From assembly GCF_001644705.1 (NCBI RefSeq), contig NZ_CP015137.1, positions 1,230,001 through 1,262,000 of the forward strand: a stretch of DNA of 32,000 nucleotides, read 5' to 3'. The position numbers were made by a program, and so were the translations under genes. Positions 3,313 through 25,567 of this stretch are shown here, in pieces. Every line of letters starts with the position of its first letter. The first letter of the stretch is position 1. This stretch comes from Dickeya solani IPO 2222 (GTDB lineage: Bacteria > Pseudomonadota > Gammaproteobacteria > Enterobacterales > Enterobacteriaceae). The notes beneath the pieces are model-generated. The model made no database searches. It saw only the letters and a program-made list of their open reading frames with translations, and was not told where the DNA came from.

Positions 3313-5793
3313 TTACCGATCCTCCTCGGTACGCTCAGGTATCACCGATACCGTGTCGGGAAATGCGAAGGGGTGATGATTGACGGCGAAACCGCTCGCC
3401 GGATGCCAGTCCATCAGGCCGTAGTCCGGGTCGTCGAACTGCGCCGCGCCGTCATCCGACCGCTGCGCCTGACGGTGGCGGAAGCGTTCGATAAACGCCG
3501 GGAAATCCGCCGCGCCCTGCCCGCTGTCCACCGCGATATACCAGACGTTATGCTCGCCGAAGGCGCGCAATTCGCTGTCCGGCTGCCCGCCGTCCGGGGT
3601 GTGGGTTTGCAGCCCGGCCGGGTTGTGCAACGCGGCATAGCCGTTGCCGCCGCGCACGAAACACCAGTGCGTCTCCACCACCACCTCGTCCAGCGCGGTA
3701 CGCGGCAGGTAAAGGTGGGTCCAGCGACGCAGGTCGTGCTGCAAATCGAAAATCATCCAGGCGCGGTTGCGATGCTGCATCACGTGCGGCAGGCGGCCGT
3801 TGCCGGCCCAGTAGGACGGGCGGTGCACGCCGTCCGGGCGATCTTCGCCGGGATGGTTGACCCACAGCCGGGCGGCGTAGTGGCGGCCGAGGCGGATATC
3901 CAGCACATGCTGCTGGTGTCCCGGCTGGCCGGGGTGGTGATCGAACACCGAGGAAAACGCCACGTCCGGCTGTTTCCAGGCGATGACGCGGGCGCTACGG
4001 TTCAGCCCCTGTACCCAGCGCGCCTGCGCCCCTTGCGGTGACTGCCAGTGGGCGATGGCGTACGTCTCTTCAGGCGGCTGGTACTGGCTCAGGCACAGCA
4101 ACGGCAGCGCCGCACAGTGCGGGATCAGCCAGCCCTCGCCCCAAATCAGCGCGCACAGGCCGGACAGTTCGGTCAGCATGCCGGAGCGCAGTTCCTTGTC
4201 GTAAGCGCGCCCCATGGTGCCAACCGCCACACCGTTCTGGTGCACCCAGGCGGTCATTAGCAGAATACGGTCGATAACCGTGCGGGCGCGTTCGCGCAGG
4301 CTTTCATCACTAGCCAGCTCGGCCAGCGCCACCAGCCCGATCAGATCGATGGGGTAATAGGCGGCGGAGTTCCACTCCACCAGCCCGTGTTCCAGAATGG
4401 CGTCGAACCAGCGCTCCAGCCGCTGGCGGGCGATAGCCTGCTGCTCGCGGCCCTGACGACCGCTGCACACGAAGACCGAATCGGGAAAGTTTTGCCCGGC
4501 CAGATACTGCGCCACATGGAAACAGAGGCAGTGGTTCTCGCTCCAGAACCACATGGTGTCGTTGCCCGGCTCATCGATCCAGTAACGAAAACCGAGGATC
4601 ACGCTGCGAACGCGCCGCCAGTCATGGGCCGTCAGCCGCTGGCCCTGATAGCGCTGCCACAGCCAGATCAGCGGCACCAGTTGAAAGTCGGCGCAGTCTT
4701 CCCGACGGCTGATCTTGTGCAGCGCCTGATTGAGGCTCGGCATGATGTTCGCCGTCCCTTCGCCGGTGGCGAAGATAGCCAGCACCCGGCCGATGCGCTC
4801 GAAACCGTGCAACGCGGTGTGGCGCAGCAGGTAGTCGCGCCGGGCGGCCAGCGTCGACAGCGACGGCATGGCTTGTGTGGACATAGTTTGCGCAGGCAGG
4901 CGGCCGAAACTGATGCTGCGCGTCAGGGTGATGCCGTCGCACACCGCGCGGCAGACCAGATCGTAATACCCCACCAACCCCGCCGGCAGCGCCACCGGCC
5001 AGCCGGTATTGCCCGCCGCCAGCGGCGATTGTTGCCGCCAGGACGGCGCCGATTCGTTAACGTTGCACACCAGATGGTGATGGATATCGACCGCTTCCGG
5101 CAACGGCGTGGCGGCGCGCAGGGTCAGGGTATCGTGGTCAATCAGGTTGTCGGCCAGCGACAGGCTGTTGATCCAGCCGTCCAGCGCCTGGATGCGTTCG
5201 CTGCAGGCGGCGTCCGGCGCGGCCTGCCAGCGCAGCGGCGTCTCACCAAGGTAACGCAGGCTGAACAGGTAGTCGGTATCGCGTTCACACAATTCCTCGG
5301 CATGCACCACCAGCGTGTTTAACCCCAGTTGCAGCGGCAGCGTCAGTTCGCACTGCTGTTCGGTGTTACGGCTAAACGGGGTGAAACGGCAGATCTGACG
5401 ACCATTAAGCCAAACGGTTACGCCGCCGCAGGTAGACAGCAGGAAACGCGCCGGTTGCAGGCTATCGCTGTGCAGATAGCAGCGGGCGAAGCGTTGCACA
5501 TGGGTGGGGCAAGGCCAGAAATCGCTGAAATTGACCGACTGGCTGTCATCGCCGCCGCTCCACAGGGTGTGAAAACGGCGATGCTCCGGCAGGCTGACGG
5601 CGCGCAGCGCGGTTTCTTGCAAGAACCGCACCCGACAAGGCAAGACGCCGACATCCACAAAGCCATTAATAAAGCGGTAATTAACATTATCCGGCAAGGT
5701 ATCCGCTTCTGCAGGATAATATTTTTCCTCCAGATCGCTAATCATAAACCGGTTAATCACGCTATTTTTCTTTAACACCCAACCGATATTCAT
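3313..5793 (-). CDS. Large cytoplasmic heparinase II/III-like (polysaccharide/oligosaccharide lyase-fold) protein, function unknown
   Basis: 826 aa, with AAGGA 6 nt before ATG 5793 and no signal peptide. The central region (WFWSENHCLCFHVAQYL..., WNSAAYYPIDL) looks like an alpha/alpha toroid. The C-terminal region contains GHQQHVLDIRLG, which resembles the GHxHxD motif of the heparinase II/III C-terminal beta-sandwich domain. There is an extra N-terminal domain of about 200 aa. The assignment rests on by-eye motifs only. Confidence 0.55.
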   Translation of the reverse strand: MNIGWVLKKNSVINRFMISDLEEKYYPAEADTLPDNVNYRFINGFVDVGVLPCRVRFLQETALRAVSLPEHRRFHTLWSGGDDSQSVNFSDFWPCPTHVQRFARCYLHSDSLQPARFLLSTCGGVTVWLNGRQICRFTPFSRNTEQQCELTLPLQLGLNTLVVHAEELCERDTDYLFSLRYLGETPLRWQAAPDAACSERIQALDGWINSLSLADNLIDHDTLTLRAATPLPEAVDIHHHLVCNVNESAPSWRQQSPLAAGNTGWPVALPAGLVGYYDLVCRAVCDGITLTRSISFGRLPAQTMSTQAMPSLSTLAARRDYLLRHTALHGFERIGRVLAIFATGEGTANIMPSLNQALHKISRREDCADFQLVPLIWLWQRYQGQRLTAHDWRRVRSVILGFRYWIDEPGNDTMWFWSENHCLCFHVAQYLAGQNFPDSVFVCSGRQGREQQAIARQRLERWFDAILEHGLVEWNSAAYYPIDLIGLVALAELASDESLRERARTVIDRILLMTAWVHQNGVAVGTMGRAYDKELRSGMLTELSGLCALIWGEGWLIPHCAALPLLCLSQYQPPEETYAIAHWQSPQGAQARWVQGLNRSARVIAWKQPDVAFSSVFDHHPGQPGHQQHVLDIRLGRHYAARLWVNHPGEDRPDGVHRPSYWAGNGRLPHVMQHRNRAWMIFDLQHDLRRWTHLYLPRTALDEVVVETHWCFVRGGNGYAALHNPAGLQTHTPDGGQPDSELRAFGEHNVWYIAVDSGQGAADFPAFIERFRHRQAQRSDDGAAQFDDPDYGLMDWHPASGFAVNHHPFAFPDTVSVIPERTEEDR

Positions 5794-6182: not shown

Positions 6183-6283
6183 CATGCATCAGGAGCCGTC
6201 GAATATACCCGGAGTAATAAAGCCAACGCGCCTGAAACTTGAAGTATGACGGGTATATATATACATATGGGTGGGAGAGTAGA

Positions 6284-7594
6284 ATGAATCGCTATCAGCA
6301 CGCGCTGTTATTTTCCTTTATGACGCTGGGCGCTTTCGCCAGCAGCAATGCCATTGCCGCCAAAACGCAAATCACCTTTTTATACAGCGACGACGACCCG
6401 GAACTGGTCCATTTCATGGAACAGAAGGTGAAGACGTTTTCACAAAACAACGATCACATCGACGTGAATTTCGTCAGCACCGGCTACAACGCACTGCAAA
6501 CCCAGTTGCCGATGCAATTGGCCGCCGGTCTGGGGCCGGATATCGCCAAAACCACCCAGATGGGCCTGCTCTCCTACACGCTCGACCTGCGCCCTTATCT
6601 GGCCGATCCGGCCGGTTTCGAAAAACGCTACGGTGCCAGTATTGAAAAAATCATGCGCATCAACGGGGTACACAAGGATAACGCCCTGCCGGGCTTCGTC
6701 GCCTCCTGGACCGCCGACCTGCCGTTCGTCAACGTAACCCTGTTCCAGCAGGCCGGCGTGCCGCTGCCGCAACCGGGTTACACTCTGGAACAGCTGATGC
6801 AGGCGTCGAAACAGGTGGCGGCAAAAACCGGCGTTGCCATTCCCTTCACCATCGACCGCAGCGGTTTTCGCTTCTCCGGCCCGGCCTACTCCTACGGCAC
6901 CCGCTACGACAAAGACGGTCTGATCAACTTCCCGGACGCCGCCGCGCAGGCGTGGATCAAAGACCTGAAACGCTGGTCGGACGATGGCATCTTCCCGCGT
7001 GAAATGTGGGGTGCCGCCGGCGGCGGTCAGTACAAGAGCATGGCCGACGACTTTGTGAACGGCAACATCGTCACCTACTTCTCCGGCAACTGGCAGTTGA
7101 ACCAGTTCAGCAAGCAGATCGGCAACGGTTTCGACTGGAAAATGCTGCCCGCGCCCTGCAAGGAAAAATGCATCTCGATGGGCGGCGCCACCTTTATCAT
7201 GCCGTTCAAGACCAGCAAGCATCCGAAAGAAGTGGCGGAATTCATGGAATGGCTGGGCAGCGACGCCATCCAGCGTGAGATCGCCGAACACTTCAATATC
7301 ATCGTCGGTGCCGATATTCCGGATCTGCATTACCAGACCAAGGATCAGCACGTGATCGACGGGTTGAACACCGCCCGCGCCGAGATCGCTAAAATTCCAG
7401 CCTACGTGTTCGACTGGGAAAAAATGGAAAGTCTGGGCGGCAGCGAGCTGTATCCGATCATCCTGACCCGCTTTACCCAGTACCTGAACAATCAGGTGTC
7501 GTATGACGAGTATCTGCGCCTGACGGAAAACGACGTGAAACGGCTTAACCAGATCATCGCCGCCAACCGGCAGCAACAGCAGAAAGCCCAGTAA
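6284..7594 (+). CDS. Carbohydrate ABC transporter periplasmic solute-binding protein (family 1)
   Basis: The track ORF begins at TTG 6239. ATG 6284 is preceded by GGGAGAG and gives a clear signal peptide, MNRYQHALLFSFMTLGAFASSNAIA-AK. The length and composition are typical of a family 1 solute-binding protein. Confidence 0.85.
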   Translation: MNRYQHALLFSFMTLGAFASSNAIAAKTQITFLYSDDDPELVHFMEQKVKTFSQNNDHIDVNFVSTGYNALQTQLPMQLAAGLGPDIAKTTQMGLLSYTLDLRPYLADPAGFEKRYGASIEKIMRINGVHKDNALPGFVASWTADLPFVNVTLFQQAGVPLPQPGYTLEQLMQASKQVAAKTGVAIPFTIDRSGFRFSGPAYSYGTRYDKDGLINFPDAAAQAWIKDLKRWSDDGIFPREMWGAAGGGQYKSMADDFVNGNIVTYFSGNWQLNQFSKQIGNGFDWKMLPAPCKEKCISMGGATFIMPFKTSKHPKEVAEFMEWLGSDAIQREIAEHFNIIVGADIPDLHYQTKDQHVIDGLNTARAEIAKIPAYVFDWEKMESLGGSELYPIILTRFTQYLNNQVSYDEYLRLTENDVKRLNQIIAANRQQQQKAQ

Positions 7595-7618: not shown

Positions 7619-8167
7619 ATGAAACGCCAGCTGATTCACCAGCCTATCGACGGCGACGCGCCGTTTGACTGGCAGACGGAAAACGACCTCTGCCAGCAAC
7701 GGTGGCCGGATGAAGACCGGTGTTTGGTGGTGACCGGCACCTTCACCCGGCTGCTGTGCTGGCAGCAGGGTCGGCTGCAACGCCACGGCGGCAGCCTGTT
7801 TCCGGTGGGCGATCCGGCCAGTCAGGCGCGGCTCGGGCTGTGGGCCGTGCAGGCGATGCTGCAGGCGGTGGAAGGCATGACGCCACTCACACCGCTGGCC
7901 AGCACACTGTTTGCCCGTTTCGACAACCACATCGAACAGGTGGTGGACTGGTCGAAACAGGCGCAGGCCGGCGATTACGCCGCGCTGGCGGCCGATATTC
8001 TCGCGCAGCCGGACGACCCGCTGGCGGTGCCGCTGCTGAAACGCGCCGCCCGTGAGCTGGCTACGTTGCTGCGCCTGTCTGACGCACGCCAGCCGGAACA
8101 GGTCTGCTTTAGCGGCGCGCTGGCGGCGGCCTGTCTCCCTTATCTCGCTCAGGAGGCGCGCTCATGA
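7619..8167 (+). CDS. Truncated, degenerate paralog of the downstream BadF/GlcNAc-kinase-family kinase (possible pseudokinase or gene remnant)
   Basis: 182 aa with a strong GGAGGAG RBS. It aligns by eye to residues of about 120-270 of the next protein. Compare VVTGTFTRLL..GGSLFPVGDPASQARLGLWAVQ...FDN...GDYA...ARE with VIAGTGSCGL..GGHEFPISDQGSGARLGLAALQ...FDN...GDYA...ARE. It lacks the N-terminal DGGGT phosphate-binding motif and the C-terminal tail. Its stop overlaps the next start (ATGA, 8164-8167). Confidence 0.6.
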   Translation: MKRQLIHQPIDGDAPFDWQTENDLCQQRWPDEDRCLVVTGTFTRLLCWQQGRLQRHGGSLFPVGDPASQARLGLWAVQAMLQAVEGMTPLTPLASTLFARFDNHIEQVVDWSKQAQAGDYAALAADILAQPDDPLAVPLLKRAARELATLLRLSDARQPEQVCFSGALAAACLPYLAQEARS

Positions 8168-9063
8168 CCACGACCGCCACACCTTATGCCGGCGAAACGC
8201 TTTATGCCGGCGTTGACGGCGGCGGCACCGGCTGCCGGGCGCGAATTTACCGGGCCGACGGTACGCCGCTCGGTCAGGGCAGCGGCGGTCGCGCCAATCT
8301 ACTGCTGGGCGTGGAAACGGTGCGTCAGGCGGTGGACGACGCGCTGATGCAGGCGCTGAAACACAGTGGACTGAGCGAGCAGGATCGCCCGCGTCTGTAC
8401 GTCGGGCTGGCGCTGGCCGGCGCAGAACACCGCAGCGCCTATCAGGCGTTTCTGACTTTGCCGCATTCCTACGCCGCGCAGGTGTTGAATACCGATGCGC
8501 TGGGCGCCTGTCTGGCGGTCAATCAGGGGGACGACGCCGGGGTGGTGATCGCCGGCACCGGCTCCTGCGGGCTGGCGTGGCATCAACGCGTCATCACCGC
8601 TTACGGCGGCCACGAGTTTCCGATATCCGATCAGGGCAGCGGCGCGCGTCTCGGGCTGGCGGCCCTGCAATACCTCTGGGGCGTCAAACAGGGCTGGGCG
8701 CCGCCGTCGGCATTAAGCCAGCAGCAGACGCTGCCGTTTGACAACGAAGCGGAAGCGGCGGCCTGGTTGCATCAGGCCAGGCCGGGCGACTACGCCCATT
8801 TCGCCCGACCGGTGTTTGATTGCGCCCGTCAGGGCGATGCGCTGGCGACCGGCCTGCTGCAACAGACCGCCCGCGAAATTGAAGGGTTACTGGCGGCGGT
8901 AGCGACACACCCACTGCCCCGCCTGTCGCTAATGGGTAGCATCGGTCTGCATATCCGGCCCTGGCTGGACGAAGCATGGCAACAACGGCTGTCGCCGCCC
9001 GCCGGCGATGCGTTGGACGGCGCGCGACTGATCGCCGTCAACCGCTACGCGCTCTACGTCTGA
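8164..9063 (+). CDS. BadF/BadG/BcrA/BcrD-type ATPase, N-acetylglucosamine/glucosamine kinase family sugar kinase
   Basis: 299 aa with the N-terminal motif AGVDGGGTGCRARI, the central motif IAGTGSCG and the motif DQGSGARLG, which are typical of the ASKHA-fold GlcNAc-kinase family. Confidence 0.8.
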   Translation: MTTTATPYAGETLYAGVDGGGTGCRARIYRADGTPLGQGSGGRANLLLGVETVRQAVDDALMQALKHSGLSEQDRPRLYVGLALAGAEHRSAYQAFLTLPHSYAAQVLNTDALGACLAVNQGDDAGVVIAGTGSCGLAWHQRVITAYGGHEFPISDQGSGARLGLAALQYLWGVKQGWAPPSALSQQQTLPFDNEAEAAAWLHQARPGDYAHFARPVFDCARQGDALATGLLQQTAREIEGLLAAVATHPLPRLSLMGSIGLHIRPWLDEAWQQRLSPPAGDALDGARLIAVNRYALYV

Positions 9064-15278: not shown

Positions 15279-15289
15279 ATCAGCGGCCT
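15270..15289 (-). terminator. Hairpin overlapping the DeoR stop codon, followed on the minus strand by a T/C-rich tract
   Basis: aggccgc-cgatca-gcggcct forms a 7-bp stem with the stop codon TGA (15282-15280) in the loop. Downstream on the minus strand is TTCCCTTCACGCGCTTTTCCCTTCGCTTTCTTTTCCC. Confidence 0.45.
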
Positions 15290-16050
15290 GCACTCACCAG
15301 TTGCAGATTGAACGGCTGCGCCCGAAGCTGACGCTCCACCTCCGGCGGCAAACTGCTGTCGGTGATGATATCGGTCAGTTCAGACAACGGCGAGACGCAA
15401 AACAGCGAGTAAGCACCGTATTTGCTGCTGTCGGCCAGCAACACCCGGCGGCTGGCGTTAACGCCTAAATCCTGCTTGATACCCGACTTTTCTTCAGTGG
15501 GGGTGGTGATACCCTTCTCCAGGCTCCAGGAGTTACAACTGATAAAGGCGATGTCCGGGTAGACGCTGCGCAGCAAACGACGACCGTGTTCGCCGATGCA
15601 GGACTGGCTGCTGTCGTCGATACGACCGCCGATGATCGTCACTTCGATCTGCTTGAACTCGGAGAGAAACAGCGCGATCTGCAAGTCGGCGGTGATCACC
15701 CGCAGCGGCAGATGAGTCAGGTTGCGCGCCAGCTCCATCATGGTGGTACCGGCGTCCAGCACCACCGCGTTGCCGGGCTGCACCAGCGACGCCGCATACC
15801 GCGCAATAGCCTGTTTTTCCGACAGATTGCGCTGCAACTTTTCATTGGTGGTCGGCTGGGAAGGGATAAAGCGGTTGAGCGTCACCCCGCCGTGGCTACG
15901 GCTGATGACGCCCTGCTCGTCCAGCTTGATCAAATCGCGGCGAATCGTCGCCGGGGACGCATCAATGACTGTCACTAGTTCATCCACCGTCACCAGATTA
16001 TGGCTTTTCAGATAATCCAGAATCTGATCGAGACGGCTTTGTCCTTTCAC
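15280..16050 (-). CDS. DeoR-family transcriptional regulator
   Basis: N-terminal winged HTH ([50 protein letters not shown]) and a C-terminal DeoR sugar-phosphate sensor domain. I prefer GTG 16050 (GGAGAA 4 nt upstream). The longest ORF starts at TTG 16083. Confidence 0.85.
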
Positions 16051-16131
16051 TCGTTCTCCATTTACACGCAACGTATCAGTCAATGTGTGTGCCCCACGAC
16101 GTATTCAACGGTTCCATACTCTGCGATTCTA

Positions 16132-17112
16132 TCAGGCCAGTTGCATCGCTAATTTGATAGAGATCGCCATGCTCTCAGACTTCGCTTTACCTGTCCAGGC
16201 GATATCAAACGCGGTGCCGTGGTCCGCGGAGGTGCGGATAAACGGCAGTCCGGCGGTGATATTCACGCCATCATAAAAGCCCAGCAGCTTGAGCGGAATG
16301 TGCCCTTGATCGTGGTACATCGCCACCACCATGTCGTATTGCCCCTCGTACGCCTGCAGATAGACGGTATCCGGCGGGCACGGGCCGTAGGCGTCGATGC
16401 CTTTGGCTTTCATCGCCTCGATGGACGGGCCGACGATGGTGATCTCTTCGTCGCCGAACAGGCCGTTCTCGCCCGCGTGCGGGTTCACCCCAGCCACGGC
16501 GATGCGCGGCGACTGATAACCAACGCGTTTCAGGAAGGTGTCCGCCATCGCAATCACGGTTTCCACCCGCTCACGGTTAAGCGTATCCAGGAATTTGCGC
16601 AGCGCAATGTGGGTGGTGACGTGGATCACCTTCAGTTTGTCGGTATACAGCACCATCGCGTAGTCGCGGCTGTTGGTCAGTTTCGCCAGCAGCTCGGTGT
16701 GCCCCGGATAAAGATGTCCGGCGGAGTGCAACGCTTCCTTATTGAGCGGCGCGGTGGCAATCGCTTGCACCTCGCCCGCCATCGCCAGTTCGGTAGCGCG
16801 CTTCACGCAGCGATACGCCAGATCACCGGCCTGCGCCTGCACCACCCCTTTTTTCAGACCCTGCGGATCGGCCAGCGGTTCGTCGATCACGTTGATAACG
16901 CCGGGAGCGAAACGCGCGTCGGCGGGACGCTCAATCTCATTGAGTTCCACCTGCGGCACAACGCCTAACGCCAGAATGCGGCGCAGCGTCTGCACGCAGC
17001 CCACCACCACCGCCGGCGCGCCGGACAGTTCACCTTCGGCCAACGATTTGATGATGATTTCCGGGCCGATACCCGCCGGGTCGCCCATGGTTACCGCAAT
17101 AATTTTACTCAC
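16132..17112 (-). CDS. pdxA2: PdxA-family NAD-dependent oxidative decarboxylase, PdxA2-type (4-phospho-D-threonate / 4-phospho-D-erythronate dehydrogenase)
   Basis: PdxA family motifs are present: [42 protein letters not shown] and [17 protein letters not shown] 17112 with GAGGAGA upstream overlaps the kinase 3' end by 8 nt. The PdxA2 subtype is inferred from pairing with a DUF1537 kinase. Confidence 0.8.
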
Positions 17113-18391
17113 ACACGCTCTCCTCAATAAAACGCAATACATTCAGCAGGGTAGCTTCATCGCCAAACCCGCCCGCTTTCGTCATCACGGGAATATCGCC
17201 CACCAGACTGTCCAGTAGACGCCCCCAGGGTACGCAGGAAGCAATCTGTCCATTGATGCGGAATCCGCTGGCCTCCAGTGCGGTTGCCGCGGCAATGGCG
17301 ATATCTCCGCCGGATAAATAGAGCCCGCCCGGCCGCTGACGCTGCACAATGTGCCGCGTTAGCTCGCCCAGCCGGCGACTGATCGTCTCTCCCAGTTGCT
17401 GACGGCTCATGCCGTAGCGCTGGCACAGACGGTCCACCTCAAATCGCTGGTTATCATCGTGGCAGGTACGAATCACGCAGTGACGGCCTGCCGCCAGCGT
17501 CGACGCCGCCTGCCGGCACGTTTGCGCCAGCGTATCGTCGCCAGTCGCCAGCAACCCGGCGATATCCAGGTCAATCAGCGTGACGTCCGGCCGCTGGCTG
17601 ACCGCCTTGATCTGCAATTGAGCGATTTCACTCATCGAACCAATCACCGCCAGCAACGCGCGGCAGGGCGCCGGAAACGCCAGATGCTGCGCCAGCGCCT
17701 CGCTCAGCCCGGCAGAGCCGACCAGCAGCGGTTTTTCCGCCAGTTGAGCCGCCGCCGCAATAATACGGTCGAGATCCTGCTGACATTCGGCGTCCAGCAC
17801 CACCAGCCGTATCCCGCTGTGTTGCAACTGTTGCAGCCGCGCCGCCAGATCGCCGTAGCGAACCTCGTTCAGGGACAGCGCTGCCTGCGCCAGGCCGGTC
17901 TGTTCCGCCAGCCGCTCACCGATTGACGCCGAACACACCGGCGTTTTCGGGTCGCTGGCGAACTCGGTATCGGTCAGCAATTTACCGTGCACCCATACCT
18001 GCCCGTCGCGGGTGATGCGACCCAGCGCCGGCGCCGCAGGCGCTATCAGTGCCAGCGACAGATCGGCGGCGTTCAGCGCGGCTTCAATTTCCGCGCCTGG
18101 ATTGCCGCGCAGCGTGGAGTCCACCTTTTTGACAATCCAGCCGTGCGCGCCGCTCTTGCGCCACATTTCTACCGCCTGTGCGGTACGTTCCGCCGCCAGC
18201 GAGGCCGCGACCGCGCGGCTGTCGGTGTTGACCACCAGCGCGTCGTCCGGCTGCCCGGCACGGATCGCCGCGGCGTCAAACATCACATTCACCCGTGCGC
18301 CCTGCAGCGCCAGTCCGACGCCTGCATCATTGGCGCCGGTGAAGTCATCCGCCACTACCAATATCCGAGTGAGTTCACGCCTGTCCGGCAT
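17105..18391 (-). CDS. DUF1537-family four-carbon acid-sugar kinase (DtnK/DenK/OtnK family)
   Basis: 428 aa. The N-terminus [15 protein letters not shown] is the conserved DDxTGxxD motif of DUF1537 kinases. The two-domain length and the adjacency to a PdxA-family gene fit the family. Confidence 0.8.
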
Positions 18392-18405
18392 AGCCGCTCT
18401 CCGTC

Positions 18406-18478
18406 AGTTCGATGTTAGTTCGATTACCTGAAATTGATTATATTGAATCACGTTTGATTATATGTGAGCAACATCAAA
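18406..18478. promoter_or_regulatory. Cluster of direct repeats and a CRP-like site in the divergent control region
   Basis: AGTTCGAT occurs twice (18406-18413 and 18417-18424). TTGATTATAT occurs twice exactly 20 bp apart (18434-18443 and 18454-18463). TGTGAgcaacaTCAAA (18463-18478) matches the CRP consensus TGTGA-N6-TCACA at 9 of 10 positions. An inverted repeat TCACAT-N7-ATGTGA lies at 18542-18560. Confidence 0.4.
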
Positions 18479-18616
18479 TTATTCGAAACCAATTTAACCT
18501 ATAAATTATCCACACAATGCGAGCAAAACGATTTTTTTCTGTCACATAAAAGAAATGTGATTGAAAAAAATCAGACTTATCCCGCTGAAGTCACAGCGAA
18601 AAGACAAGGTAACAGT

Positions 18617-19753
18617 ATGAATATCAACAGCACCCTCATCAGCGGTTATCAGGCACTTCAGGATTTGGGCTACCTCCTGCGCGGCAGGCAGCACGTGCTG
18701 CTGGTGACGGACAAAAATATCGTGGGGCTGGCCGGGGTACAGGCCCTGATCGCGCAACTGAAAGCGGGCGTGCCGCAACTGTCCCTGATAGATAATGTGC
18801 CGGCCGAACCCAGCCAGCATGATGTGGCTGCTGTGCTGCAACAGTTGCCGGCCACGCAGCCGGACCTGGTGGTCGGCGTGGGCGGCGGCAGCGTGCTGGA
18901 CGTGGCGAAACTGCTGTCGCTGCTGTGCGCCGGTGAAGAGGGCATCACGCTCGACAGCCTGCTGGAAGGCCGCAAGCCGACACGCCGCACTACCTCTCTG
19001 TTGATCCCAACCACCGCCGGCACCGGCTCTGAAGCCACGCCGAACGCTATTCTGGCGATCCCGGAGAAAGAAACCAAAGTCGGCATCATCACCCCGGTCA
19101 TGCTGCCGGATTACGTGGCGCTGGTGCCGGAGCTGACCACCAGCATGCCGGCGCATATCGCCGCGTCGACCGGCATTGATGCACTGTGCCACCTGATCGA
19201 ATGTTTCACCGCCACCATCGCCAACCCGGTAGCGGACAACTACGCGCTGATCGGCATGAAGAAGCTGTTCGCCAACATCGAAACCGCGGTGAACGAGCCG
19301 GACAACCTGGAAGCCCGCCTGAATATGCTGTGGGCCTCCTACTATGGCGGCGCGTCCATCGCGCATTCCGGCACCCATCTGGTGCACGCCATGTCTTACC
19401 CGCTGGGCGGCAAGTACCACATCCCGCACGGGGTGGCGAACGCCATTCTGCTGGCGCCCTGCATGCGCTTTGTTCAGCACGCGGCGGCGGAAAAATTCGC
19501 ACAGGCCTACGACCTGCTGCCGGATGCCGACCTGTCGCTGAACACCGAACAAAAAGCCCAGGCGCTGGTGGATTACTTCACTGCGCTGGTGAAACGGCTG
19601 AATTTGCCGTCTTCGCTGCAACAACTGGGGATCAGCCCGGACCACCTGCCGTATCTGGTGGAATCCGCACTGCAAGTGCAGCGGCTGATGAAAAATGTCC
19701 CGACCGCCGTTACGGCGGAAGACGTTCACGCCATTTATTCAACGTTGTTTTAA
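18617..19753 (+). CDS. Iron-containing (group III) alcohol dehydrogenase family oxidoreductase
   Basis: ATG 18617 gives MNINSTLISGYQALQDLG... Family motifs are GVGGGSVLDVAK, TTAGTGSE and the metal-binding His cluster (CHLIE..., HSGTHLVHAMSYPLGGKYHIPHG). The track start at 18464 lies in the AT-rich promoter region. Confidence 0.85.
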   Translation: MNINSTLISGYQALQDLGYLLRGRQHVLLVTDKNIVGLAGVQALIAQLKAGVPQLSLIDNVPAEPSQHDVAAVLQQLPATQPDLVVGVGGGSVLDVAKLLSLLCAGEEGITLDSLLEGRKPTRRTTSLLIPTTAGTGSEATPNAILAIPEKETKVGIITPVMLPDYVALVPELTTSMPAHIAASTGIDALCHLIECFTATIANPVADNYALIGMKKLFANIETAVNEPDNLEARLNMLWASYYGGASIAHSGTHLVHAMSYPLGGKYHIPHGVANAILLAPCMRFVQHAAAEKFAQAYDLLPDADLSLNTEQKAQALVDYFTALVKRLNLPSSLQQLGISPDHLPYLVESALQVQRLMKNVPTAVTAEDVHAIYSTLF

Positions 19754-19821
19754 GCGCGCGTTTTAGTCGCGCATTTTACCAACGTCGCTCTGGATGATGA
19801 AAATACCGAGGAACAATAACG

Positions 19822-20706
19822 ATGACTAGACCGATTACGGGCGTACTGACGGCGATCGTCACGCCTTTTGACCATCAGGGGGAATTTAGCCCCGCCGCTA
19901 TGCGCCAGCAGGTTCAACGCCAGATGCGCTACGGCAACGGCATTTTCTGTAACGGCACCAACGGCGAGTTCTTTGTACTGCACACCGATGAAAAGGTGGC
20001 CGTCACCGAAACCTGCGTTGATGAAGTCGCCGGCAAGGTGCCGGTGGTGGCGCACATCGGGGAAATCTCCACCCGTGAAACCATCAAGCTCGGCAAGCGT
20101 ATCGCCGCGCTGGGCGTGGATGCGGTGTCGGTGATCACCCCTTACTTTGTGCCGCTCAAACAAAGCGAGCTGATCGCGCACTACCGCGAAGTGGCGGACG
20201 CGCTGCCGGTGCCGATATTCCTGTATAACATTCCGGCCCGCACCGGCAACACCCTGCAGCCAGAGACAGTGCGGATTCTGGCGGATCATCCCAACATCAT
20301 CGGCATCAAAGACAGCGCCGGCAGCTATGAAAGCCTGAGCGGTTTCCTGCAAGCGGTGAAAGACATGCCGAACTGCGACGTGCTCAACGGGCCGGACTCA
20401 CTGATCCATCAGGGGTTTGTCGACGGCTGTTCCGCCTGTATTTCCGGCCTCGCCAACGTGGCGCCGGAAGCCATCAGCCAAATCTGGCACCGTTTCCACG
20501 CTGGCGATATCGAAGGCTCCCGCCTGGCGCAGGAGCAGGTGAGCGAACTGCGTAAAACGCTGTACGCGGTGGCGTTCTCCCCTGCGGTGGTGAAAAAGGC
20601 GCTGACGCTGATGGGACAGGATGTGGGCGTCAGCCGTTACCCGATTCAGTTCTCACAACAAGACGAAGATACCATTCGCGCCATTATCAAACCGTTCTCG
20701 CACTGA
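19822..20706 (+). CDS. DapA/NanA-family class I pyruvate aldolase (N-acetylneuraminate-lyase-like; substrate unknown)
   Basis: 294 aa with the motifs GTNGEF (GxxGE), YNIP (catalytic Tyr) and IGIKDS (Schiff-base Lys). Confidence 0.85.
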   Translation: MTRPITGVLTAIVTPFDHQGEFSPAAMRQQVQRQMRYGNGIFCNGTNGEFFVLHTDEKVAVTETCVDEVAGKVPVVAHIGEISTRETIKLGKRIAALGVDAVSVITPYFVPLKQSELIAHYREVADALPVPIFLYNIPARTGNTLQPETVRILADHPNIIGIKDSAGSYESLSGFLQAVKDMPNCDVLNGPDSLIHQGFVDGCSACISGLANVAPEAISQIWHRFHAGDIEGSRLAQEQVSELRKTLYAVAFSPAVVKKALTLMGQDVGVSRYPIQFSQQDEDTIRAIIKPFSH

Positions 20707-20743
20707 ATGAGAACTTACCCTTACTCCTACAGGATCGAAAACC

Positions 20744-22165
20744 ATGAACCATTTTGATCTGACAGACACACTTATCATCGTCGGGATAATTGTCGTCTAC
20801 ATCGCCCTTACATCCTTGCTGACCTTGCGGCTGCGCAGTAATTCCAACTCGGAATTCATGGAAGGTTCGCGCGCGTTGCCGGCGTTTATCGTCGGCGTGC
20901 TGCTGATGACCGAGTTTATCGGCGCCAAGTCTACGGTCGGTACCTCACAGGCGGCCTTTGAAAGCGGTATCGCCGCGTCCTGGTCGGTGATCGGCGCCGC
21001 CATCGGCTTCCTGCTGTTCGGGATGATTCTGGTGAAAAAGATCTATAACACCGGGAAAATCACTATTTCTGGCGCTATCGCCGAACGCTATGGCAATACC
21101 ACCAAGAATATTATCTCCATCATCATGATCTACGCGCTGTTGCTGGTTAACGTGGGTAACTACGTCAGCGGCGCCGCCGCCATTTCCACCGTACTGAAAG
21201 TGAGCCTGCCGGTCGCGGCGCTGATTACCGCCATCGTCAGTACCTTCTACTTCTACTTCGGCGGCATCAAAGGCGTGGCGTACGTGACGCTGATCCACAG
21301 CGGCATGAAATACATCGGGGTGATGGTCATTCTGTTCGTGGCGTTGAAAATGACCGGCGGCATTACACCGATGGTCGAGAAGATGCCGGAGTTCTACTGG
21401 ACCTGGGACGGCAACATCGGCGCCAGCACTATCGGTGCATGGCTTATCGGCACCATCGGTTCCATTTTCTGCACCCAGTTCGTGATTCAGGCTATCGCTT
21501 CCACCAAGGATGAGAAATCCGCCAAACGCGCGACCTGGATTGCATTCCTGTTCTGTATGCCGATCGCGCTGGCGATTGCGATTATCGGCGTCGCCGCCAA
21601 ATTCGTACATCCGGAAATCAAGAGCCTGTACGCCCTGCCGATCTTCCTGCAGGACATGAACCCCTGGCTGGCTGGCTTAGTGACCACCTCGTTGGTGGCG
21701 TCCATCTTCATCAGCGTCAGTACCGTTGCGCTGGCGATCGCTTCGCTGGTCGTGAAAGATTTCTACGTGCCTTATTGCAAACCGACGCCGGAAAAAGAGT
21801 TCAAGATGACCCGCGTGTTCTCGCTGATCATCGGTTTCCTGCCGCTGGTGTTCGTGCTGCTGGTGCCGGAAGTGCTGAAGCTGTCGTTCTTCACCCGCGC
21901 CATTCGCCTGTCGATTTCCGTGGTGGCGATGGTCGCCTTCTACCTGCCGTTCTTCAGTAGTTCCCGTGGCATCAACACCGGTCTGATCCTGTCCTGCGTG
22001 GTCACATCCATCTGGTACATAATGGGTAACCCGTTCGGCATCGACAATATGTACATTGCGCTGTTGACCCCGGCAGTGGTGATGGTTATCGACCGTCTGA
22101 TCCCCAACAAGGCGGCGAAGACCAAACAGCAAACCGAACCCTCCATACCTCATTCTGGAGCATAA
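20744..22165 (+). CDS. Sodium:solute symporter (SSS) family transporter
   Basis: 473 aa with about 13 hydrophobic segments and an SSF-like N-terminus (FMEGSRALPAFIVGVLLMTEFIGAKSTVG). Confidence 0.85.
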   Translation: MNHFDLTDTLIIVGIIVVYIALTSLLTLRLRSNSNSEFMEGSRALPAFIVGVLLMTEFIGAKSTVGTSQAAFESGIAASWSVIGAAIGFLLFGMILVKKIYNTGKITISGAIAERYGNTTKNIISIIMIYALLLVNVGNYVSGAAAISTVLKVSLPVAALITAIVSTFYFYFGGIKGVAYVTLIHSGMKYIGVMVILFVALKMTGGITPMVEKMPEFYWTWDGNIGASTIGAWLIGTIGSIFCTQFVIQAIASTKDEKSAKRATWIAFLFCMPIALAIAIIGVAAKFVHPEIKSLYALPIFLQDMNPWLAGLVTTSLVASIFISVSTVALAIASLVVKDFYVPYCKPTPEKEFKMTRVFSLIIGFLPLVFVLLVPEVLKLSFFTRAIRLSISVVAMVAFYLPFFSSSRGINTGLILSCVVTSIWYIMGNPFGIDNMYIALLTPAVVMVIDRLIPNKAAKTKQQTEPSIPHSGA

Positions 22166-22171
22166 ATAGTC

Positions 22172-23347
22172 ATGACGACCGAAACCATTACCATCGAACG
22201 CAGCGGCCTGGTTCATGCGGCAGACAACGACAGCCAGCGTATTGACGCCTACATCCCGTCGGAACGCCCGCAGAATCACGCAGCCAACCTGCTGCACCTG
22301 CCTAACGGCGACGTGCTGTGCGTCTGGTTTGGCGGCACCCAGGAAGGGGTGTCGGACATCTCGATTTATCTGTCGCGGCTGGTGAAAGGGAGCGGGCAAT
22401 GGACGCCCGCCGTTAAACTCTCCGACGACCCGATGCGTTCCGAGCAGAACCCGGTGCTGTTCCTGGCGCCGGACGGCGTGCTGTGGTTACTGTACACCGC
22501 GCAGAAATCCGGTAATCAGGACACCGCCATCGTGCGTTACCGTCAGTCGCTGGATCAGGGCTACACCTGGGGCGACATCGGCACACTGCTGGAGCAGCCC
22601 GGTACTTTCATCCGCCAGCCGATTACCGTGCTGTCCAACGGCGACTGGCTGCTGCCGGTGTTCTACTGCCGCACCCAGCCGGGTGAAAAATGGGTCGGCA
22701 ACGACGACATCAGCGCGGTAAAAATCTCCAGCGATCAGGGTAAAACCTGGCGTGAATCGGTGGTGCCGAACAGCACCGGTTGCGTACACATGAACATTAC
22801 GCCGCTCAAAGACGGTTCTCTGCTGGCGCTGTTCCGCAGCCGCTGGGCTGATTGTATCTACCGCAGCCACTCCACCGACGGCGGCGAAACCTGGTCTGAA
22901 CCGGTGCCGACCGTGCTGCCCAACAACAACTCGTCCATTCAGGTGACCACGCTGGACAACGGTCATCTGGCGCTGGTGTTCAACGCCATGAGCGCCGAAG
23001 GCGCCACCGAACGCCGTCTGTCGCTGTATGACGAAATCGAGGACGAAGAAGAAAACGACGCCAAAATGCCGGAGGTCTCGTCCGGACGCAGCGCCTTCTG
23101 GGGTGCGCCGCGCGCGCCGATGACGCTGGCGATCTCCGAAGACGGCGGGAAAACCTGGCCGTGGCAGCGCAATCTGGAAGTGGGCGACGGTTACTGCATG
23201 ACCAACAACTCGACCGAGAAGCTCAACCGCGAGTTTTCCTACCCCAGCATCAAGCAGGGGCCGGACGGCAAGCTGCACATCGCCTTTACCTACTTCCGGC
23301 AGGCCATCAAGTACGTCTGCGTCAGCGAAGAGTGGGTCAAGGGTTAA
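22172..23347 (+). CDS. BNR/Asp-box repeat sialidase-fold protein (exo-alpha-sialidase-like, PF13088-type), cytoplasmic
   Basis: Four Asp boxes are present: SLDQGYTW, SSDQGKTW, STDGGETW and SEDGGKTW. The N-terminal QRIDAYIP sits where the sialidase (F)RIP arginine motif would be. The C-terminal EFSYPSI resembles the nucleophile-Tyr context. There is no signal peptide. Confidence 0.8.
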   Translation: MTTETITIERSGLVHAADNDSQRIDAYIPSERPQNHAANLLHLPNGDVLCVWFGGTQEGVSDISIYLSRLVKGSGQWTPAVKLSDDPMRSEQNPVLFLAPDGVLWLLYTAQKSGNQDTAIVRYRQSLDQGYTWGDIGTLLEQPGTFIRQPITVLSNGDWLLPVFYCRTQPGEKWVGNDDISAVKISSDQGKTWRESVVPNSTGCVHMNITPLKDGSLLALFRSRWADCIYRSHSTDGGETWSEPVPTVLPNNNSSIQVTTLDNGHLALVFNAMSAEGATERRLSLYDEIEDEEENDAKMPEVSSGRSAFWGAPRAPMTLAISEDGGKTWPWQRNLEVGDGYCMTNNSTEKLNREFSYPSIKQGPDGKLHIAFTYFRQAIKYVCVSEEWVKG

Positions 23348-23358
23348 TACCTCGCTCG

Positions 23359-23381
23359 CCCTCCCCCGCTCAGGGGGAGGG
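23359..23381 (+). other. Intercistronic GC hairpin (9-bp stem)
   Basis: ccctccccc-gctca-gggggaggg lies 12 nt after the BNR-gene stop. No U-tract follows. Confidence 0.5.
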
Positions 23382-23450
23382 ACAACACAAGTTCCCCCAC
23401 TTGCCGACGCACGGCGCCGCCCGGTGGGTTGCCACATCCATTGCCTTCAG

Positions 23451-23482
23451 GGAGGCTATCGTCGCCTCCTTCAGTTAAGGAG
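23451..23482 (+). promoter_or_regulatory. Candidate SD-sequestering switch (GGAGGC / GCCTCCTT / AAGGAG)
   Basis: CTCCTT (23466-23471) is perfectly complementary to the yhcH-like RBS AAGGAG (23477-23482) across a 5-nt loop. The overlapping GCCTCC (23464-23469) is also perfectly complementary to the upstream GGAGGC (23451-23456). The two pairings are mutually exclusive. Confidence 0.35.
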
Positions 23483-23488
23483 TCATCC

Positions 23489-23962
23489 ATGATCGCAGGC
23501 AATCTGAATTATCTGCCGCTGGCGACGTTACCCGAGCCGCTGTGGCGTATTCTTTCCGGTTTCACGCTCGACCAGTTAAACGCCCTGCCGGAAGGCAAGT
23601 ACCAGCCGGACGGCGTTGACTGGTTCTACTCCATCGGTACCGTCTCCACCGCCCCGAAAGCCGAACGTCATACCGAATTCCACCGCCGTTTTCTCGATAT
23701 TCAACTGATTCTCGCCGGTGAAGAGATCATCGGTTACGACCTGAATGACGCCGGCGATCGCGCCGCGATCGAACGCAAACCAGACCTGTTCATTCTGGAA
23801 CAGCCGCAGGTGCCGCATGCCATCCGGCTGGCCGCCGGGGATTTCGTCACCTTCTATCCAGGCGAACCGCATCAGGCGCTGTGCGCAATCAACGACCAGC
23901 CGGCACCGGTGAAAAAAGCAGTGTTCAAGGTGCCGGTCGAACTACTGAACGCACCGAGGTAA
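23489..23962 (+). CDS. YhcH/YjgK/YiaL-family protein (DUF386; NanQ/EbgC-like cupin)
   Basis: ATG 23489 with AAGGAG upstream gives MIAGNLNYLPLATLPEPL..., and the motifs HRRFLDIQLILAGEE and FYPGEPH are characteristic of the family. The track start at 23429 lies in the structured intergenic region. Confidence 0.75.
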   Translation: MIAGNLNYLPLATLPEPLWRILSGFTLDQLNALPEGKYQPDGVDWFYSIGTVSTAPKAERHTEFHRRFLDIQLILAGEEIIGYDLNDAGDRAAIERKPDLFILEQPQVPHAIRLAAGDFVTFYPGEPHQALCAINDQPAPVKKAVFKVPVELLNAPR

Positions 23963-23968
23963 CGCCGA

Positions 23969-24652
23969 ATGTCAGGACAAAAACAGGCAGTGATCACCGG
24001 CAGCAGCTCCGGCATCGGCGCCGCCATTACCGCCACCCTGCTGGCGGCGGGCTGGAAGGTTGTCGGGCTATCGCGTCAGCCGGGCGCGCATCAGCACCCG
24101 AACTTTACGCATCACCCGCTGGATATCACCGATACACCGGAGCTTATCGCGTTGCTGGACAGCCTGCCCGCCGTCGATGCGGTGATTCACGCCGCCGGGG
24201 TGATGAAAGCCGCAACGCTGGGCTCGCTGTCATACGCCGACAGCGAGCAACTGTGGAAGCTGCATATTCAGGTCGCCGAAGTGCTGGCCGACCGGCTGGT
24301 GGACAAACTGCCGCAGGGCGGCCGCATCGTCCTGCTGGGTAGCCGCACATCCAGCGGCGCTGCCGGGCGTAGCCAGTACGTCGCCACCAAGTCGGCGATG
24401 ATCGGCATGGTGAGAAGCTGGGCGGCGGAACTGGCGCCGCGCGGCATTACCGTCAATATCGTAGCACCAGGCGCCACCGAAACGCCGATGCTGAATCAGC
24501 CAGGGCGGCAAAGCTCGCCGCCGAAACTGCCGCCGATCGGTCGGTTTATCCAGCCGCAGGAAGTGGCGGATCTGGTGGCGTACCTGTTGTCGCCTTCAGC
24601 GGCGGCCATCACCGGACAACAACTGGTGATCTGCGGCGGCGCCTCGTTATAG
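23969..24652 (+). CDS. Short-chain dehydrogenase/reductase (classical SDR)
   Basis: Cofactor motif TGSSSGIG, catalytic motif YVATK (YxxxK), and NIVAPG. 227 aa. Confidence 0.85.
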   Translation: MSGQKQAVITGSSSGIGAAITATLLAAGWKVVGLSRQPGAHQHPNFTHHPLDITDTPELIALLDSLPAVDAVIHAAGVMKAATLGSLSYADSEQLWKLHIQVAEVLADRLVDKLPQGGRIVLLGSRTSSGAAGRSQYVATKSAMIGMVRSWAAELAPRGITVNIVAPGATETPMLNQPGRQSSPPKLPPIGRFIQPQEVADLVAYLLSPSAAAITGQQLVICGGASL

Positions 24653-24826: not shown

Positions 24827-25567
24827 ATGTTGATGTGGCTGGCCGATCCCAACGCCTGGCTGACCTTGTTCACCCTGACATTGCTGGAAATCATCCTCGG
24901 TATCGACAACATTATTTTTCTGTCCATCGTCGTCGCCCGGCTGCCGCGCGCTCAACAGCCTCGTGCCCGTTTTACCGGGCTGGCGGGCGCAATGCTGATG
25001 AGGCTGTCGCTGCTGGCCTCGATAGCCTGGCTGATGCACCTCACCGACCCGCTGTTTACCGTCGCCAATCGCGCACTTTCCGCCCGCGACCTGATCCTGC
25101 TGACCGGCGGCCTGTTTTTGATTATCAAATCCAGCGGCGAGATTCGCGCCATGCTGGCAGGGGAAGAAGAGGCGCAACGCCGCAGCCGCACCACCGCGTT
25201 CTGGGGCGCGATCGTGCAGATCATGCTGCTGGATATCATCTTCAGTCTGGATTCGGTGATTACCGCGGTCGGGCTGTCGCAGCACCTGCTGATCATGATG
25301 CTGGCGGTGGTGCTGGGCGTAGTGATCATGATGCTGGCGGCGCGAACCATCGGCGAATTTATCGATGCGCACCCGTCAGTCAAAATGCTGGCGCTGGCGT
25401 TTCTGATTCTGGTAGGCGGCACCCTGATGCTGGACAGCCTGCAAATCCATGTGCCCAAAGGCTACGTCTACTTCGCCATGTTCTTTACCATCGGCGTGGA
25501 GATACTCAATCTGGCGCGCCAACACAGGCATCACCCGGCGCTGGAAACGCGCCTCAGCGAGCAGTAA
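24827..25567 (+). CDS. TerC-family integral membrane protein (YgdQ-like)
   Basis: 246 aa with TerC signatures LEIILGIDNIIFLS and IVQIMLLDIIFSLDSVITAVG, and a strong RBS. The overlapping 253-aa frame (24835..25596) is Arg/Pro/Gly-rich noise. Confidence 0.85.
   Translation: MLMWLADPNAWLTLFTLTLLEIILGIDNIIFLSIVVARLPRAQQPRARFTGLAGAMLMRLSLLASIAWLMHLTDPLFTVANRALSARDLILLTGGLFLIIKSSGEIRAMLAGEEEAQRRSRTTAFWGAIVQIMLLDIIFSLDSVITAVGLSQHLLIMMLAVVLGVVIMMLAARTIGEFIDAHPSVKMLALAFLILVGGTLMLDSLQIHVPKGYVYFAMFFTIGVEILNLARQHRHHPALETRLSEQ

Follow-up and report, generated by a model that had tools for sequence, protein, structure and literature searches.

Organisation of the locus

The subject of this analysis is a divergent gene cluster of Dickeya solani IPO 2222, which lies in a stretch of 32,000 nucleotides (contig NZ_CP015137.1, positions 1,230,001 to 1,262,000 of the forward strand), referred to below as the window and numbered from its first base. 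The cluster joins a four-carbon (C4) acid-sugar kinase and a PdxA-type dehydrogenase to an aldolase, a permease and a protein of the sialidase fold, and an original prediction for this region had read it as a candidate pathway for 3-deoxy-D-lyxo-heptulosaric acid (Dha) from the pectin rhamnogalacturonan II (RG-II). The nine open reading frames (ORFs) of the cluster were confirmed at their predicted positions and their families were assigned with Pfam and NCBIfam. The AT-rich control region of 225 bp, the 8-nt overlap between the kinase and PdxA genes and the four Asp-boxes of the sialidase-fold protein were likewise all present as claimed.

Read away from the control region (18392-18616), which contains conserved candidate operators, the minus arm encodes a DUF1537 kinase of the DtnK type (17105-18391), the decarboxylating D-threonate 4-phosphate dehydrogenase PdxA2 (16132-17112) and a DeoR-family repressor (15280-16083, given as the maximal ORF, within which an internal GTG may be the true start). 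The plus arm begins with a Group-III iron alcohol dehydrogenase (Fe-ADH; 18617-19753), which contains Fe-ADH and ADH_Fe_C domains, and continues with a class I aldolase of the DapA family (19822-20706; PF00701, 222 bits). These are followed by a permease of the sodium:solute symporter (SSS) family with an SSF domain (20744-22165), the proposed substrate importer, and by the sialidase-fold protein with its BNR_2 domain (22172-23347; E = 3.9e-67), called the BNR protein here, which is 98% identical to its D. dadantii counterpart. A YhcH/YjgK/YiaL protein with a DUF386 domain (23489-23962) and a short-chain dehydrogenase/reductase (SDR) with adh_short domains (23969-24652), regarded as accessory, complete the arm, while a TerC-family membrane protein with a TerC domain (24827-25567, plus strand) is an uncertain tenth member.

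The gaps between the plus-arm genes measure 68, 37, 6, 141 and 6 nt. The best-supported start codons are GTG at 17112 for PdxA2, ATG at 18617 for the Fe-ADH and ATG at 23489 for the YhcH protein, and the resulting lengths of 326, 378 and 157 amino acids equal those of the public gene calls in Musicola and D. oryzae. It is the GTG start of PdxA2 that produces the 8-nt overlap with the kinase stop, and an identical 8-nt overlap is annotated in E. coli. As had been predicted, neither NanK nor NanE is encoded in the locus, since no match to such a family was found in Pfam or NCBIfam among the nine or ten proteins.

Kinase and PdxA2 of the minus arm

Both enzymes of the minus arm passed the equivalog cut-offs of the D-threonate pathway, in agreement with the type originally assigned to this pair. 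The kinase scored 614 bits against the D-threonate kinase model NF047819 (cut-off 450) and PdxA2 scored 688 bits against the D-threonate 4-phosphate dehydrogenase model NF002891 (cut-off 583). In the PDB, the kinase matched 4XFM/4XGJ with 527 bits, the former of which is reportedly the Pectobacterium enzyme studied by Zhang et al. in 2016. PdxA2 matched 2HI1 and 6E85 with 595 and 585 bits, respectively; it shares about 80% identity with the solved Salmonella enzyme PdxA2 and with 6E85, which its depositors named 'D-threonate 4-phosphate dehydrogenase'. Judged by these profile and structure matches, the assignment of the minus arm as a D-threonate module holds.

Co-conservation of the two arms

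A scan with an alignment of the BNR family, restricted to one genome per species, gave at least 574 relatives, and 80 loci were returned. All nine window proteins were compared with these 80 loci by tblastn; 65 of the loci had full 10-kb flanks. PdxA, Fe-ADH and aldolase were all found within 10 kb of the BNR gene in 52 of the 65 loci, none of the three in 12, and a partial set in one. The Fe-ADH was present in 53 of the fully flanked loci, the DeoR regulator in 48, the SDR in 46 and the YhcH protein in 44. The linkage between BNR, aldolase, DUF1537 and PdxA2, for which a neighbourhood check had been suggested, is conserved, and the cluster occurs whole in hundreds of bacterial species associated with plants or the gut.

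The set is kept in shuffled order in Enterobacterales, Pasteurellaceae, Burkholderiaceae, Rhizobiaceae, Bacillus, Paenibacillus and Negativicutes; rearranged versions include those of Bacillus pumilus-group strains, Paenibacillus, Priestia, Lucifera (Negativicutes), Pasteurellaceae and Propionivibrio. On Rhizobiaceae megaplasmids, a BNR-PdxA-FeADH operon stands divergent from DapA-ABC genes with the kinase nearby, and in Caballeronia the whole set forms one operon, which includes a porin and a fused DUF1537-PdxA gene. The E. coli version is an island between glnS and nagE, which was found in 1049 of 5426 complete genomes (about 19%) and is essentially always whole; it carries an SLC13 permease and TerC and lacks the SDR, which is also missing from the Rhizobiaceae versions. 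Regulators differ in distant versions, with PrpR-sigma54 types in Firmicutes as an example. Matches on plasmids come mostly from Rhizobium, Sinorhizobium, Pantoea, Ralstonia and Agrobacterium, and chromosomal matches include Dickeya, Pectobacterium, Erwinia and Rahnella, a distribution that speaks for a link with plants. The two arms are a single co-conserved unit.

The E. coli version (L081, NZ_CP123315.1) is 90-95% identical to an Escherichia sp. copy and always chromosomal.

Control region and regulator

The control region has a GC content of 34.7% as opposed to 60% for the window. It contains three elements, O1 (TGATTATATTGAATCA, 18435-18450), O2 (TGATTATATGTGAGCAACATCAAATTATT, 18455-18483) and O3 (TGATTGAAAAAAATCA, 18558-18573), the last of which is a third TGATT-N6-AATCA site; O2 includes a CRP-like half-palindrome, TGTGA-N6-TCAAA. 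A conserved TATAAA at 18500-18505 is a candidate -10 box, and a promoter scan returned one weak match on the minus strand only. In the intergenic regions of 51 Enterobacterales loci, divergent flanks surround a block of about 45 nt that hardly varies, and in 49 of the 51 a pair of TGATTA motifs is spaced by exactly 20 nt. O1, O2 and O3 are likely to be the DeoR operators for both arms.

Repeats at 18406-18478 had been proposed as DeoR sites. Of these, the elements at 18435-18483 are conserved, whereas the tandem copies of GTYAGTTCGAT at 18403-18424 are specific to Dickeya and were dropped as an operator, as they are not conserved outside this genus. The plus-arm leader also has an inverted repeat with 18-nt arms (18530-18572; 89% complementary, 7-nt loop), which overlaps O3; in the set of intergenic regions that were aligned its left arm is confined to Dickeya, and its right arm, TGATT-N6-AATCA, is conserved.

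The regulator itself has HTH_DeoR and DeoRC domains, and candidate TGATT-N6-AATCA sites are present in the divergent promoter. Its closest NCBIfam model is YgbI, with 180 bits well under the cut-off of 400 bits. The motifs in the control region suggest a locus that is repressed by DeoR and probably activated by CRP.

Aldolase and iron alcohol dehydrogenase

The aldolase falls below the cut-offs of both DapA, by a narrow margin, and NanA. It scored 191.7 bits against the dapA model TIGR00674 (cut-off 206.15), and 129.6 and 163.7 bits against the nanA models TIGR00683 and NF003164 (cut-offs 382 and 281); the second-best related model, TIGR02313, gave 152 bits, far below its cut-off. Compared with a sequence taken as that of E. 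coli NanA, the identity is 30%, with L142 replaced by R140 and E192 by S193. That the enzyme is a canonical NanA, which would have spoken against the original proposal, is thus not what the models or the active site indicate. The nearest solved relatives in the PDB are dihydrodipicolinate synthase (DHDPS) enzymes.

Within 63 orthologues, the Schiff-base lysine K163, the catalytic tyrosine Y135 and the carboxylate-binding motif GTNGE are invariant. R140, which aligns with R138 of DHDPS and L142 of NanA, is Arg in 61 of them and Lys in the other two. In DHDPS, R138 binds the carboxylate of aspartate semialdehyde, a C4 aldehydo-acid, and the product is a seven-carbon (C7) ring with 2,6-dicarboxylates, the aza-analogue of the Dha pyranose. 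The conserved R140 and the DHDPS-like C7 skeleton give independent support for a C7 di-acid as the substrate, from which a C4 aldehydo-acid would be released.

The best NCBIfam match of the Fe-ADH, below threshold, is 4-hydroxybutyrate dehydrogenase, an enzyme that reduces an omega-aldehydo-acid. Its neighbours in the PDB are aldehyde reductases of the DhaT/FucO type, and it otherwise resembles a generic aldehyde reductase.

The sialidase-fold BNR protein

There are exactly four Asp-boxes of the form S-x-D-x-G-x-x-W in the BNR protein (residues 126, 186, 234 and 322). The N-terminal part is hydrophilic and, as judged from the sequence, has no signal-like hydrophobic stretch, and the protein is predicted to be cytoplasmic. 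The AlphaFold2 model reached a mean confidence (pLDDT) of 85 and a pTM of 0.88, and Foldseek placed it closest to sialidases of glycoside hydrolase family 33 (GH33), including 1EUS and 1WCQ, with TM scores of about 0.7 and 13-17% identity. The six-bladed beta-propeller with Asp-boxes that characterises GH33 is present in the model. Sequence and profile searches in the PDB align the middle part of the protein only, which is rich in Asp-boxes, and the top profile match over this region is NanC.

The active-site positions were mapped through local HMMER alignments to NanB, NanC and the leech and R. gnavus sialidases. In these weak alignments H206 takes the position of the catalytic Glu, R222 that of the second Arg of the triad and Y357 that of the nucleophilic Tyr, so that the pair of nucleophile Tyr and Glu partner found in GH33 is not retained. 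Among 27 diverse family members with 32-56% identity, position 206 is His in 14 and Gln in 13 and never Glu, while Y357 is kept in 24. The best-conserved residues in these members are H36, E58, N93, R148, R222, R224, N251, R314, Y357, P358 and R376. From its spacing to an Asp-box, R314 is probably the third triad Arg. An N-terminal RIP motif is not evident in the sequence; H36, conserved in 25 of the 27, appears to stand in its position by motif only. The match to 5MQR, which we take to be BT1020 (GH142/GH143), is insignificant (E = 0.07-0.24, 13-15 bits over the Asp-box stretch).

The family comprises 299 clusters at 50% identity with E <= 1e-30, and 5803 with E <= 1e-3. Across the 80 loci, which come from several phyla, the identity of the BNR protein is 66-98%, and 66-75% between Proteobacteria and Firmicutes/Negativicutes. 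Its partners in distant operons are far more diverged, with identities of about 40% for the aldolase, 36% for the Fe-ADH, 30% for the kinase, 50% for PdxA and 56% for the SSS permease. The distant loci in this comparison were L043, L055, L061, L068, L070, L073, L076 and L080; candidate causes for the high identity of the BNR protein are an unusually strong constraint or a separate transfer of the SSS-BNR pair. The protein also has an acidic loop, DEIEDEEENDAKMPEVSSGRS, at residues 287-307 (window about 23030-23092), with a pLDDT below 50 at 289-296, and most of the distant family members in the alignment have gaps at the corresponding columns.

Permeases, YhcH and accessory proteins

The SSS permease has no match in the PDB to a sialic-acid symporter at E <= 0.001, and its best NCBIfam matches, both below cut-off, are the generic sss family and PanF. 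In other versions of the cluster it is replaced by SLC13/DASS permeases (E. coli), CitMHS (Pasteurellaceae), a permease matching both the CitMHS and the Na-sulfate-symporter (SLC13) families (Klebsiella), a major facilitator superfamily carrier (Lucifera), an Nramp-like LeuT-fold carrier (Priestia) or an Opp/Dpp-type ATP-binding cassette (ABC) importer (Rhizobiaceae). A small di- or tricarboxylate is favoured over an oligosaccharide because carboxylate carriers recur in this series. Together with R140 and the family match of the Fe-ADH, these dicarboxylate-type transporters agree with the cleavage foreseen in the original prediction, in which a C7 3-deoxy-ulosaric acid yields pyruvate and a C4 aldehydo-acid.

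The YhcH protein passed the subfamily model TIGR00022 and failed the NanQ equivalog NF040884 (98.9 bits, cut-off 160). Among the 80 loci, TerC has homologues (57-62% identity) solely within the cluster, where they are placed between the aldolase gene and the BNR gene; the versions that carry them are those of Klebsiella, E. coli, Kluyvera and Pseudocitrobacter. In the slot after the SDR, where the D. solani gene lies, nothing is found in Musicola and a chemoreceptor gene is found in D. oryzae. TerC was dropped as a firm tenth gene, as it is not syntenic in these two.

Other membrane proteins for cation handling recur in the cluster, namely a Na/Ca exchanger in Necropsobacter (L074), CitMHS and the Nramp-like carrier. 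In B. safensis (L061, 3017-6274), components of an iron-siderophore-type ABC system (Peripla_BP_2, FecCD, ATPase) lie directly upstream of the cluster, and a Peripla_BP_2 protein adjoins the small Pantoea cluster L031; this could be a coincidence or a hint that the substrate moves as a metal chelate. As a speculation, a pyran-2,6-dicarboxylate may be imported as a Ca/Mg or Mn chelate, which would account for the TerC, Na/Ca-exchanger and CitMHS genes.

Proposed pathway and substrate

We propose, with moderate confidence and on the basis of sequence and model comparisons, that the locus is one DeoR-repressed, probably CRP-activated divergent catabolic unit for an imported plant C7 3-deoxy-hept-2-ulosaric acid, Dha and/or daucic acid, its 2,3-dehydrated form. 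Daucic acid is a widespread plant dihydropyran-2,6-dicarboxylic acid (C7H8O7, [M-H]- 203.02) with 4'- and 5'-hydroxyls, found in carrot, sweet potato and banana both as the free acid and in esterified form. Structurally, it is 2,6-anhydro-3-deoxy-hept-2-enaric acid. Since it is lighter than Dha by exactly one water, it corresponds to Dha as Neu5Ac2en, the glycal that sialidases hydrate, corresponds to Neu5Ac.

In the proposed route, the SSS permease would import the C7 3-deoxy-hept-2-ulosaric (pyran-2,6-dicarboxylic) acid, and the cytoplasmic sialidase-fold protein would yield free Dha, either by hydration of the glycal daucic acid or by cleavage of a small Dha ketoside. The YhcH protein may hasten the interconversion of anomers and the opening of the ring. 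The DapA-like aldolase would then split Dha in its open-chain form, to give pyruvate and threuronate, a C4 aldehydo-acid, with R140 holding the distal carboxylate as in DHDPS, and the Fe-ADH would reduce the aldehydo-acid to D-threonate. DtnK would phosphorylate this to D-threonate 4-phosphate, from which PdxA2 would form dihydroxyacetone phosphate (DHAP) and CO2 by oxidative decarboxylation. The carbon balance closes, as C7 equals pyruvate, DHAP and CO2. The stereochemical argument that leads from Dha to D-threonate was re-derived and is correct: the D-lyxo configuration of C4 to C6 gives D-threonate after cleavage, reduction and renumbering. As a piece of chemical logic, the path from a C7 3-deoxy-heptulosaric acid to pyruvate, DHAP and CO2 has good support. 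The analysis establishes the gene content, the family and fold assignments, the co-conservation of the arms, the conserved operator and the equivalog standing of DtnK and PdxA2. Which C7 compound is the substrate, what the BNR protein does to it and which roles fall to the Fe-ADH, YhcH, SDR and TerC are what we infer, and the specific substrate and the BNR reaction are put forward as hypotheses.

For the BNR reaction we tentatively suggest, as a possibility with limited odds of being right, that the protein is not a glycosidase but a dedicated cytoplasmic glycal hydratase, which would convert daucic acid and water to Dha. If this were true, the locus would constitute the first pathway for the breakdown of daucic acid and Dha and would be the physiological source of D-threonate for DtnK and PdxA2, and the route would be common to rhizobia, plant pathogens and some 19% of the complete E. 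coli genomes. We know of no catabolic route for either Dha or daucic acid.

Other substrates were considered. Chelidonic acid was rejected, as its hydration would give a triketo-diacid, for which no tetronate kinase is needed, and Kdo, KDN and Neu5Ac were set aside because their aldehyde products would have five or six carbons.

Several points weigh against this explanation. The D-lyxo configuration of daucic acid is presumed by us and was not confirmed by the literature search, and non-pectinolytic hosts, namely E. coli and Pasteurellaceae, commonly carry the cluster. The active site of the BNR protein was mapped through weak local alignments only, the SDR and TerC have no explained role in the proposed route, and the Opp/Dpp-type importers of the Rhizobiaceae usually take larger or nitrogenous ligands. 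The kinase orthologues diverge strongly (28-62% identity), and the specificity for D-threonate may not hold everywhere. Finally, in ten Pantoea (L020, L021, L025-L027, L031, L037, L039, L045, L062) and two Bacillaceae loci (L055, L066) the BNR gene has no aldolase, Fe-ADH, kinase or PdxA gene within 10 kb. These loci may be a paralogous front-end module that supplies another route.

The twelve loci mostly contain SSS and SDR genes as well, and some also YhcH. The neighbours in L020 are a gene of the isocitrate/tartrate-dehydrogenase family and a LysR regulator, and those in L031 are a Peripla_BP_2 binding protein (Pantoea, 6550-7563) and a GDSL esterase.

Alternative explanations

In the original prediction, the substrate was a Dha glycoside from RG-II and the BNR protein a glycosidase. 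In its present form, an RG-II Dha oligosaccharide would be imported and cleaved by the BNR protein as a cytoplasmic Dha-specific glycoside hydrolase, with the remaining route unchanged, and we regard this as unlikely. The sialidase fold with its four Asp-boxes and the conserved Tyr at the nucleophile position are in line with such a hydrolase, as are the parallel between YhcH and NanQ, which acts after sialidase, the pectinolytic host, and the importer of the Rhizobiaceae, which could carry an oligosaccharide. However, the position of the catalytic Glu is His or Gln in all 27 family members and the best E-value against 5MQR is 0.07 only. SLC13 and CitMHS permeases are not known as carriers of disaccharides, no aglycone-processing or secreted RG-II or pectin enzyme is linked to the cluster in the versions examined, and the cluster is frequent in hosts that are not pectinolytic. 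This part of the original prediction is not supported.

The same architecture could also serve a different 2-keto-3-deoxy acid, an idea to which we attach an equally low probability. Candidates are a 6-amino analogue that would lead to 4-hydroxy-L-threonine, or a C7 mono-acid, such as a 3-deoxy-heptulosonate, that would lead through a tetrose to D-erythronate or D-threonate. According to summaries of Thiaville et al. (2016), 4-hydroxy-L-threonine is phosphorylated by certain DUF1537 kinases, and PdxA2 is able to stand in for PdxA. Conservation within the set is lowest for the kinase, and the SDR could oxidise a tetrose; on the other hand, the SDR is missing in E. coli and the Rhizobiaceae, and the cluster has no conserved aminotransferase, lactonase or aldehyde dehydrogenase as a partner. 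Both equivalog thresholds for DtnK and PdxA2 are reached, and the carboxylate clamp of R140 and the carboxylate-type permeases favour a di-acid. The salvage of pyridoxal phosphate (PLP) is said to have been regarded as a side activity by the authors of the 2016 work.

Two unrelated neighbours, a nan-like sialic-acid locus beside an independent D-threonate locus, are suggested by the resemblance of the families to nan components (sialidase, DapA/NanA, SSS, YhcH) and by the occurrence of DtnK and PdxA2 without the partner set, presumably as in Salmonella STM0162, but are ruled out as far as the neighbourhoods go and are highly improbable overall because the set is co-conserved across phyla in an all-or-none manner, in shuffled order, mixed operons and one gene fusion, while the aldolase does not reach the cut-off of either NanA model, the locus lacks NanK and NanE, the SSS permease shows no relationship to the sialic-acid transporters of solved structure and one conserved candidate operator region would serve both arms.

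Other features of the window

Outside the cluster, the window contains an ORF of 826 amino acids (3313-5793, minus strand) without any match in Pfam or NCBIfam. Its neighbours are a GH88-family gene (2199-3311), which passes the NCBIfam equivalog model 'beta-galactosidase BglB', an extracellular solute-binding protein (6239-7594) and genes for BadF-type sugar kinases, and the region looks like a separate uncharacterised glycan-utilisation locus. Two adjacent ORFs on the plus strand (7619-8167 and 8164-9063) encode 182 and 299 amino acids; the match of the former to the NagK_SO3507-type N-acetylglucosamine kinase model is confined to the C-terminal half, the latter covers the model in full, and the pair may represent a partial duplication or a gene fragment.

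Significance and comparison with known systems

The clustering of DUF1537-PdxA2, sialidase, DapA and ADH genes has been noted in the 'GR 6' region of E. coli BEN2908 and on pSymB of S. meliloti (PMC12928451, citing Thiaville et al., 2016), where PLP salvage is discussed and the genes are listed with no substrate or pathway assigned. The novelty of the system had been put too high: the gene clustering was already in print, while the claim that no Dha catabolic pathway had been described stands for the literature searched. These searches (D-threonate and sialidase, heptulosaric acid, Dickeya sialidase, COG4692, ECA3760-65) likewise returned no substrate or functional study for the cluster. The proposed route would supply a function for a large branch of the sialidase superfamily that has so far been an orphan, explain why D-threonate enzymes occur in so many bacteria and describe the bacterial use of Dha and daucic acid, which are unusual plant acids. 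The presence of the island in about one fifth of complete E. coli genomes, and of the cluster in soft-rot pathogens, rhizobia, Ralstonia and the Bacillus pumilus group, may point to an overlooked niche of plant-derived nutrients in gut and rhizosphere.

The nan loci, which combine sialidase, NanT/SiaT, NanQ/YhcH, NanA, NanK and NanE, share the same folds with the present locus and the same principle, in which a ulosonic acid is freed, opened and cleaved by an aldolase to pyruvate and an aldehyde. They differ in that the aldolase here is not NanA, NanK and NanE are lacking, the sialidase-fold protein is predicted to be cytoplasmic with His at the position of the catalytic Glu, and the aldehyde product would proceed via a tetronate kinase. 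A canonical nan locus was rejected on the NanA, NanK/NanE and transporter tests. With the GH33 sialidases that hydrate glycals, such as NanC of S. pneumoniae, the BNR protein shares the six-bladed propeller with Asp-boxes, but it is only 13-17% identical to GH33 members, has His or Gln in place of Glu, shows no evident RIP motif and is predicted to be intracellular. The GH143 enzyme BT1020 acts on Dha, and the BNR protein differs from it in having no significant similarity to 5MQR, presumably the same enzyme.

DHDPS (DapA) and the HpaI-like aldolases of the DapA family with C7 dicarboxylates as substrates have the Schiff-base Lys, the catalytic Tyr and the R138-equivalent Arg in common with the aldolase described here, and the DHDPS product is built on the same C7 2,6-dicarboxylate skeleton as the proposed substrate. 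The aldolase differs from DHDPS by its place in a catabolic operon and by GTNGE instead of GTTGE. A D-threonate catabolic module of DtnK and PdxA2 with a DeoR-type regulator was reportedly described by Zhang and co-workers, and the minus arm with its translationally coupled genes matches this module. In the present locus, however, it is joined to a six-gene arm that presumably makes D-threonate in the cell, and no permease of the tetronate type is present.

Counterparts with an identical gene set are the BEN2908 and S. meliloti clusters, which likewise comprise DeoR/GlpR, PdxA2, DUF1537, Fe-ADH, DapA, a COG4692 sialidase-like protein and a YhcH/EbgC-like protein. They differ from the Dickeya locus in having SLC13/CitT or ABC transporters instead of SSS, and the E. 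coli version in having TerC and no SDR. Our verdict on these comparisons is that the locus is a probable ulosonic-acid catabolic operon assembled from known families.

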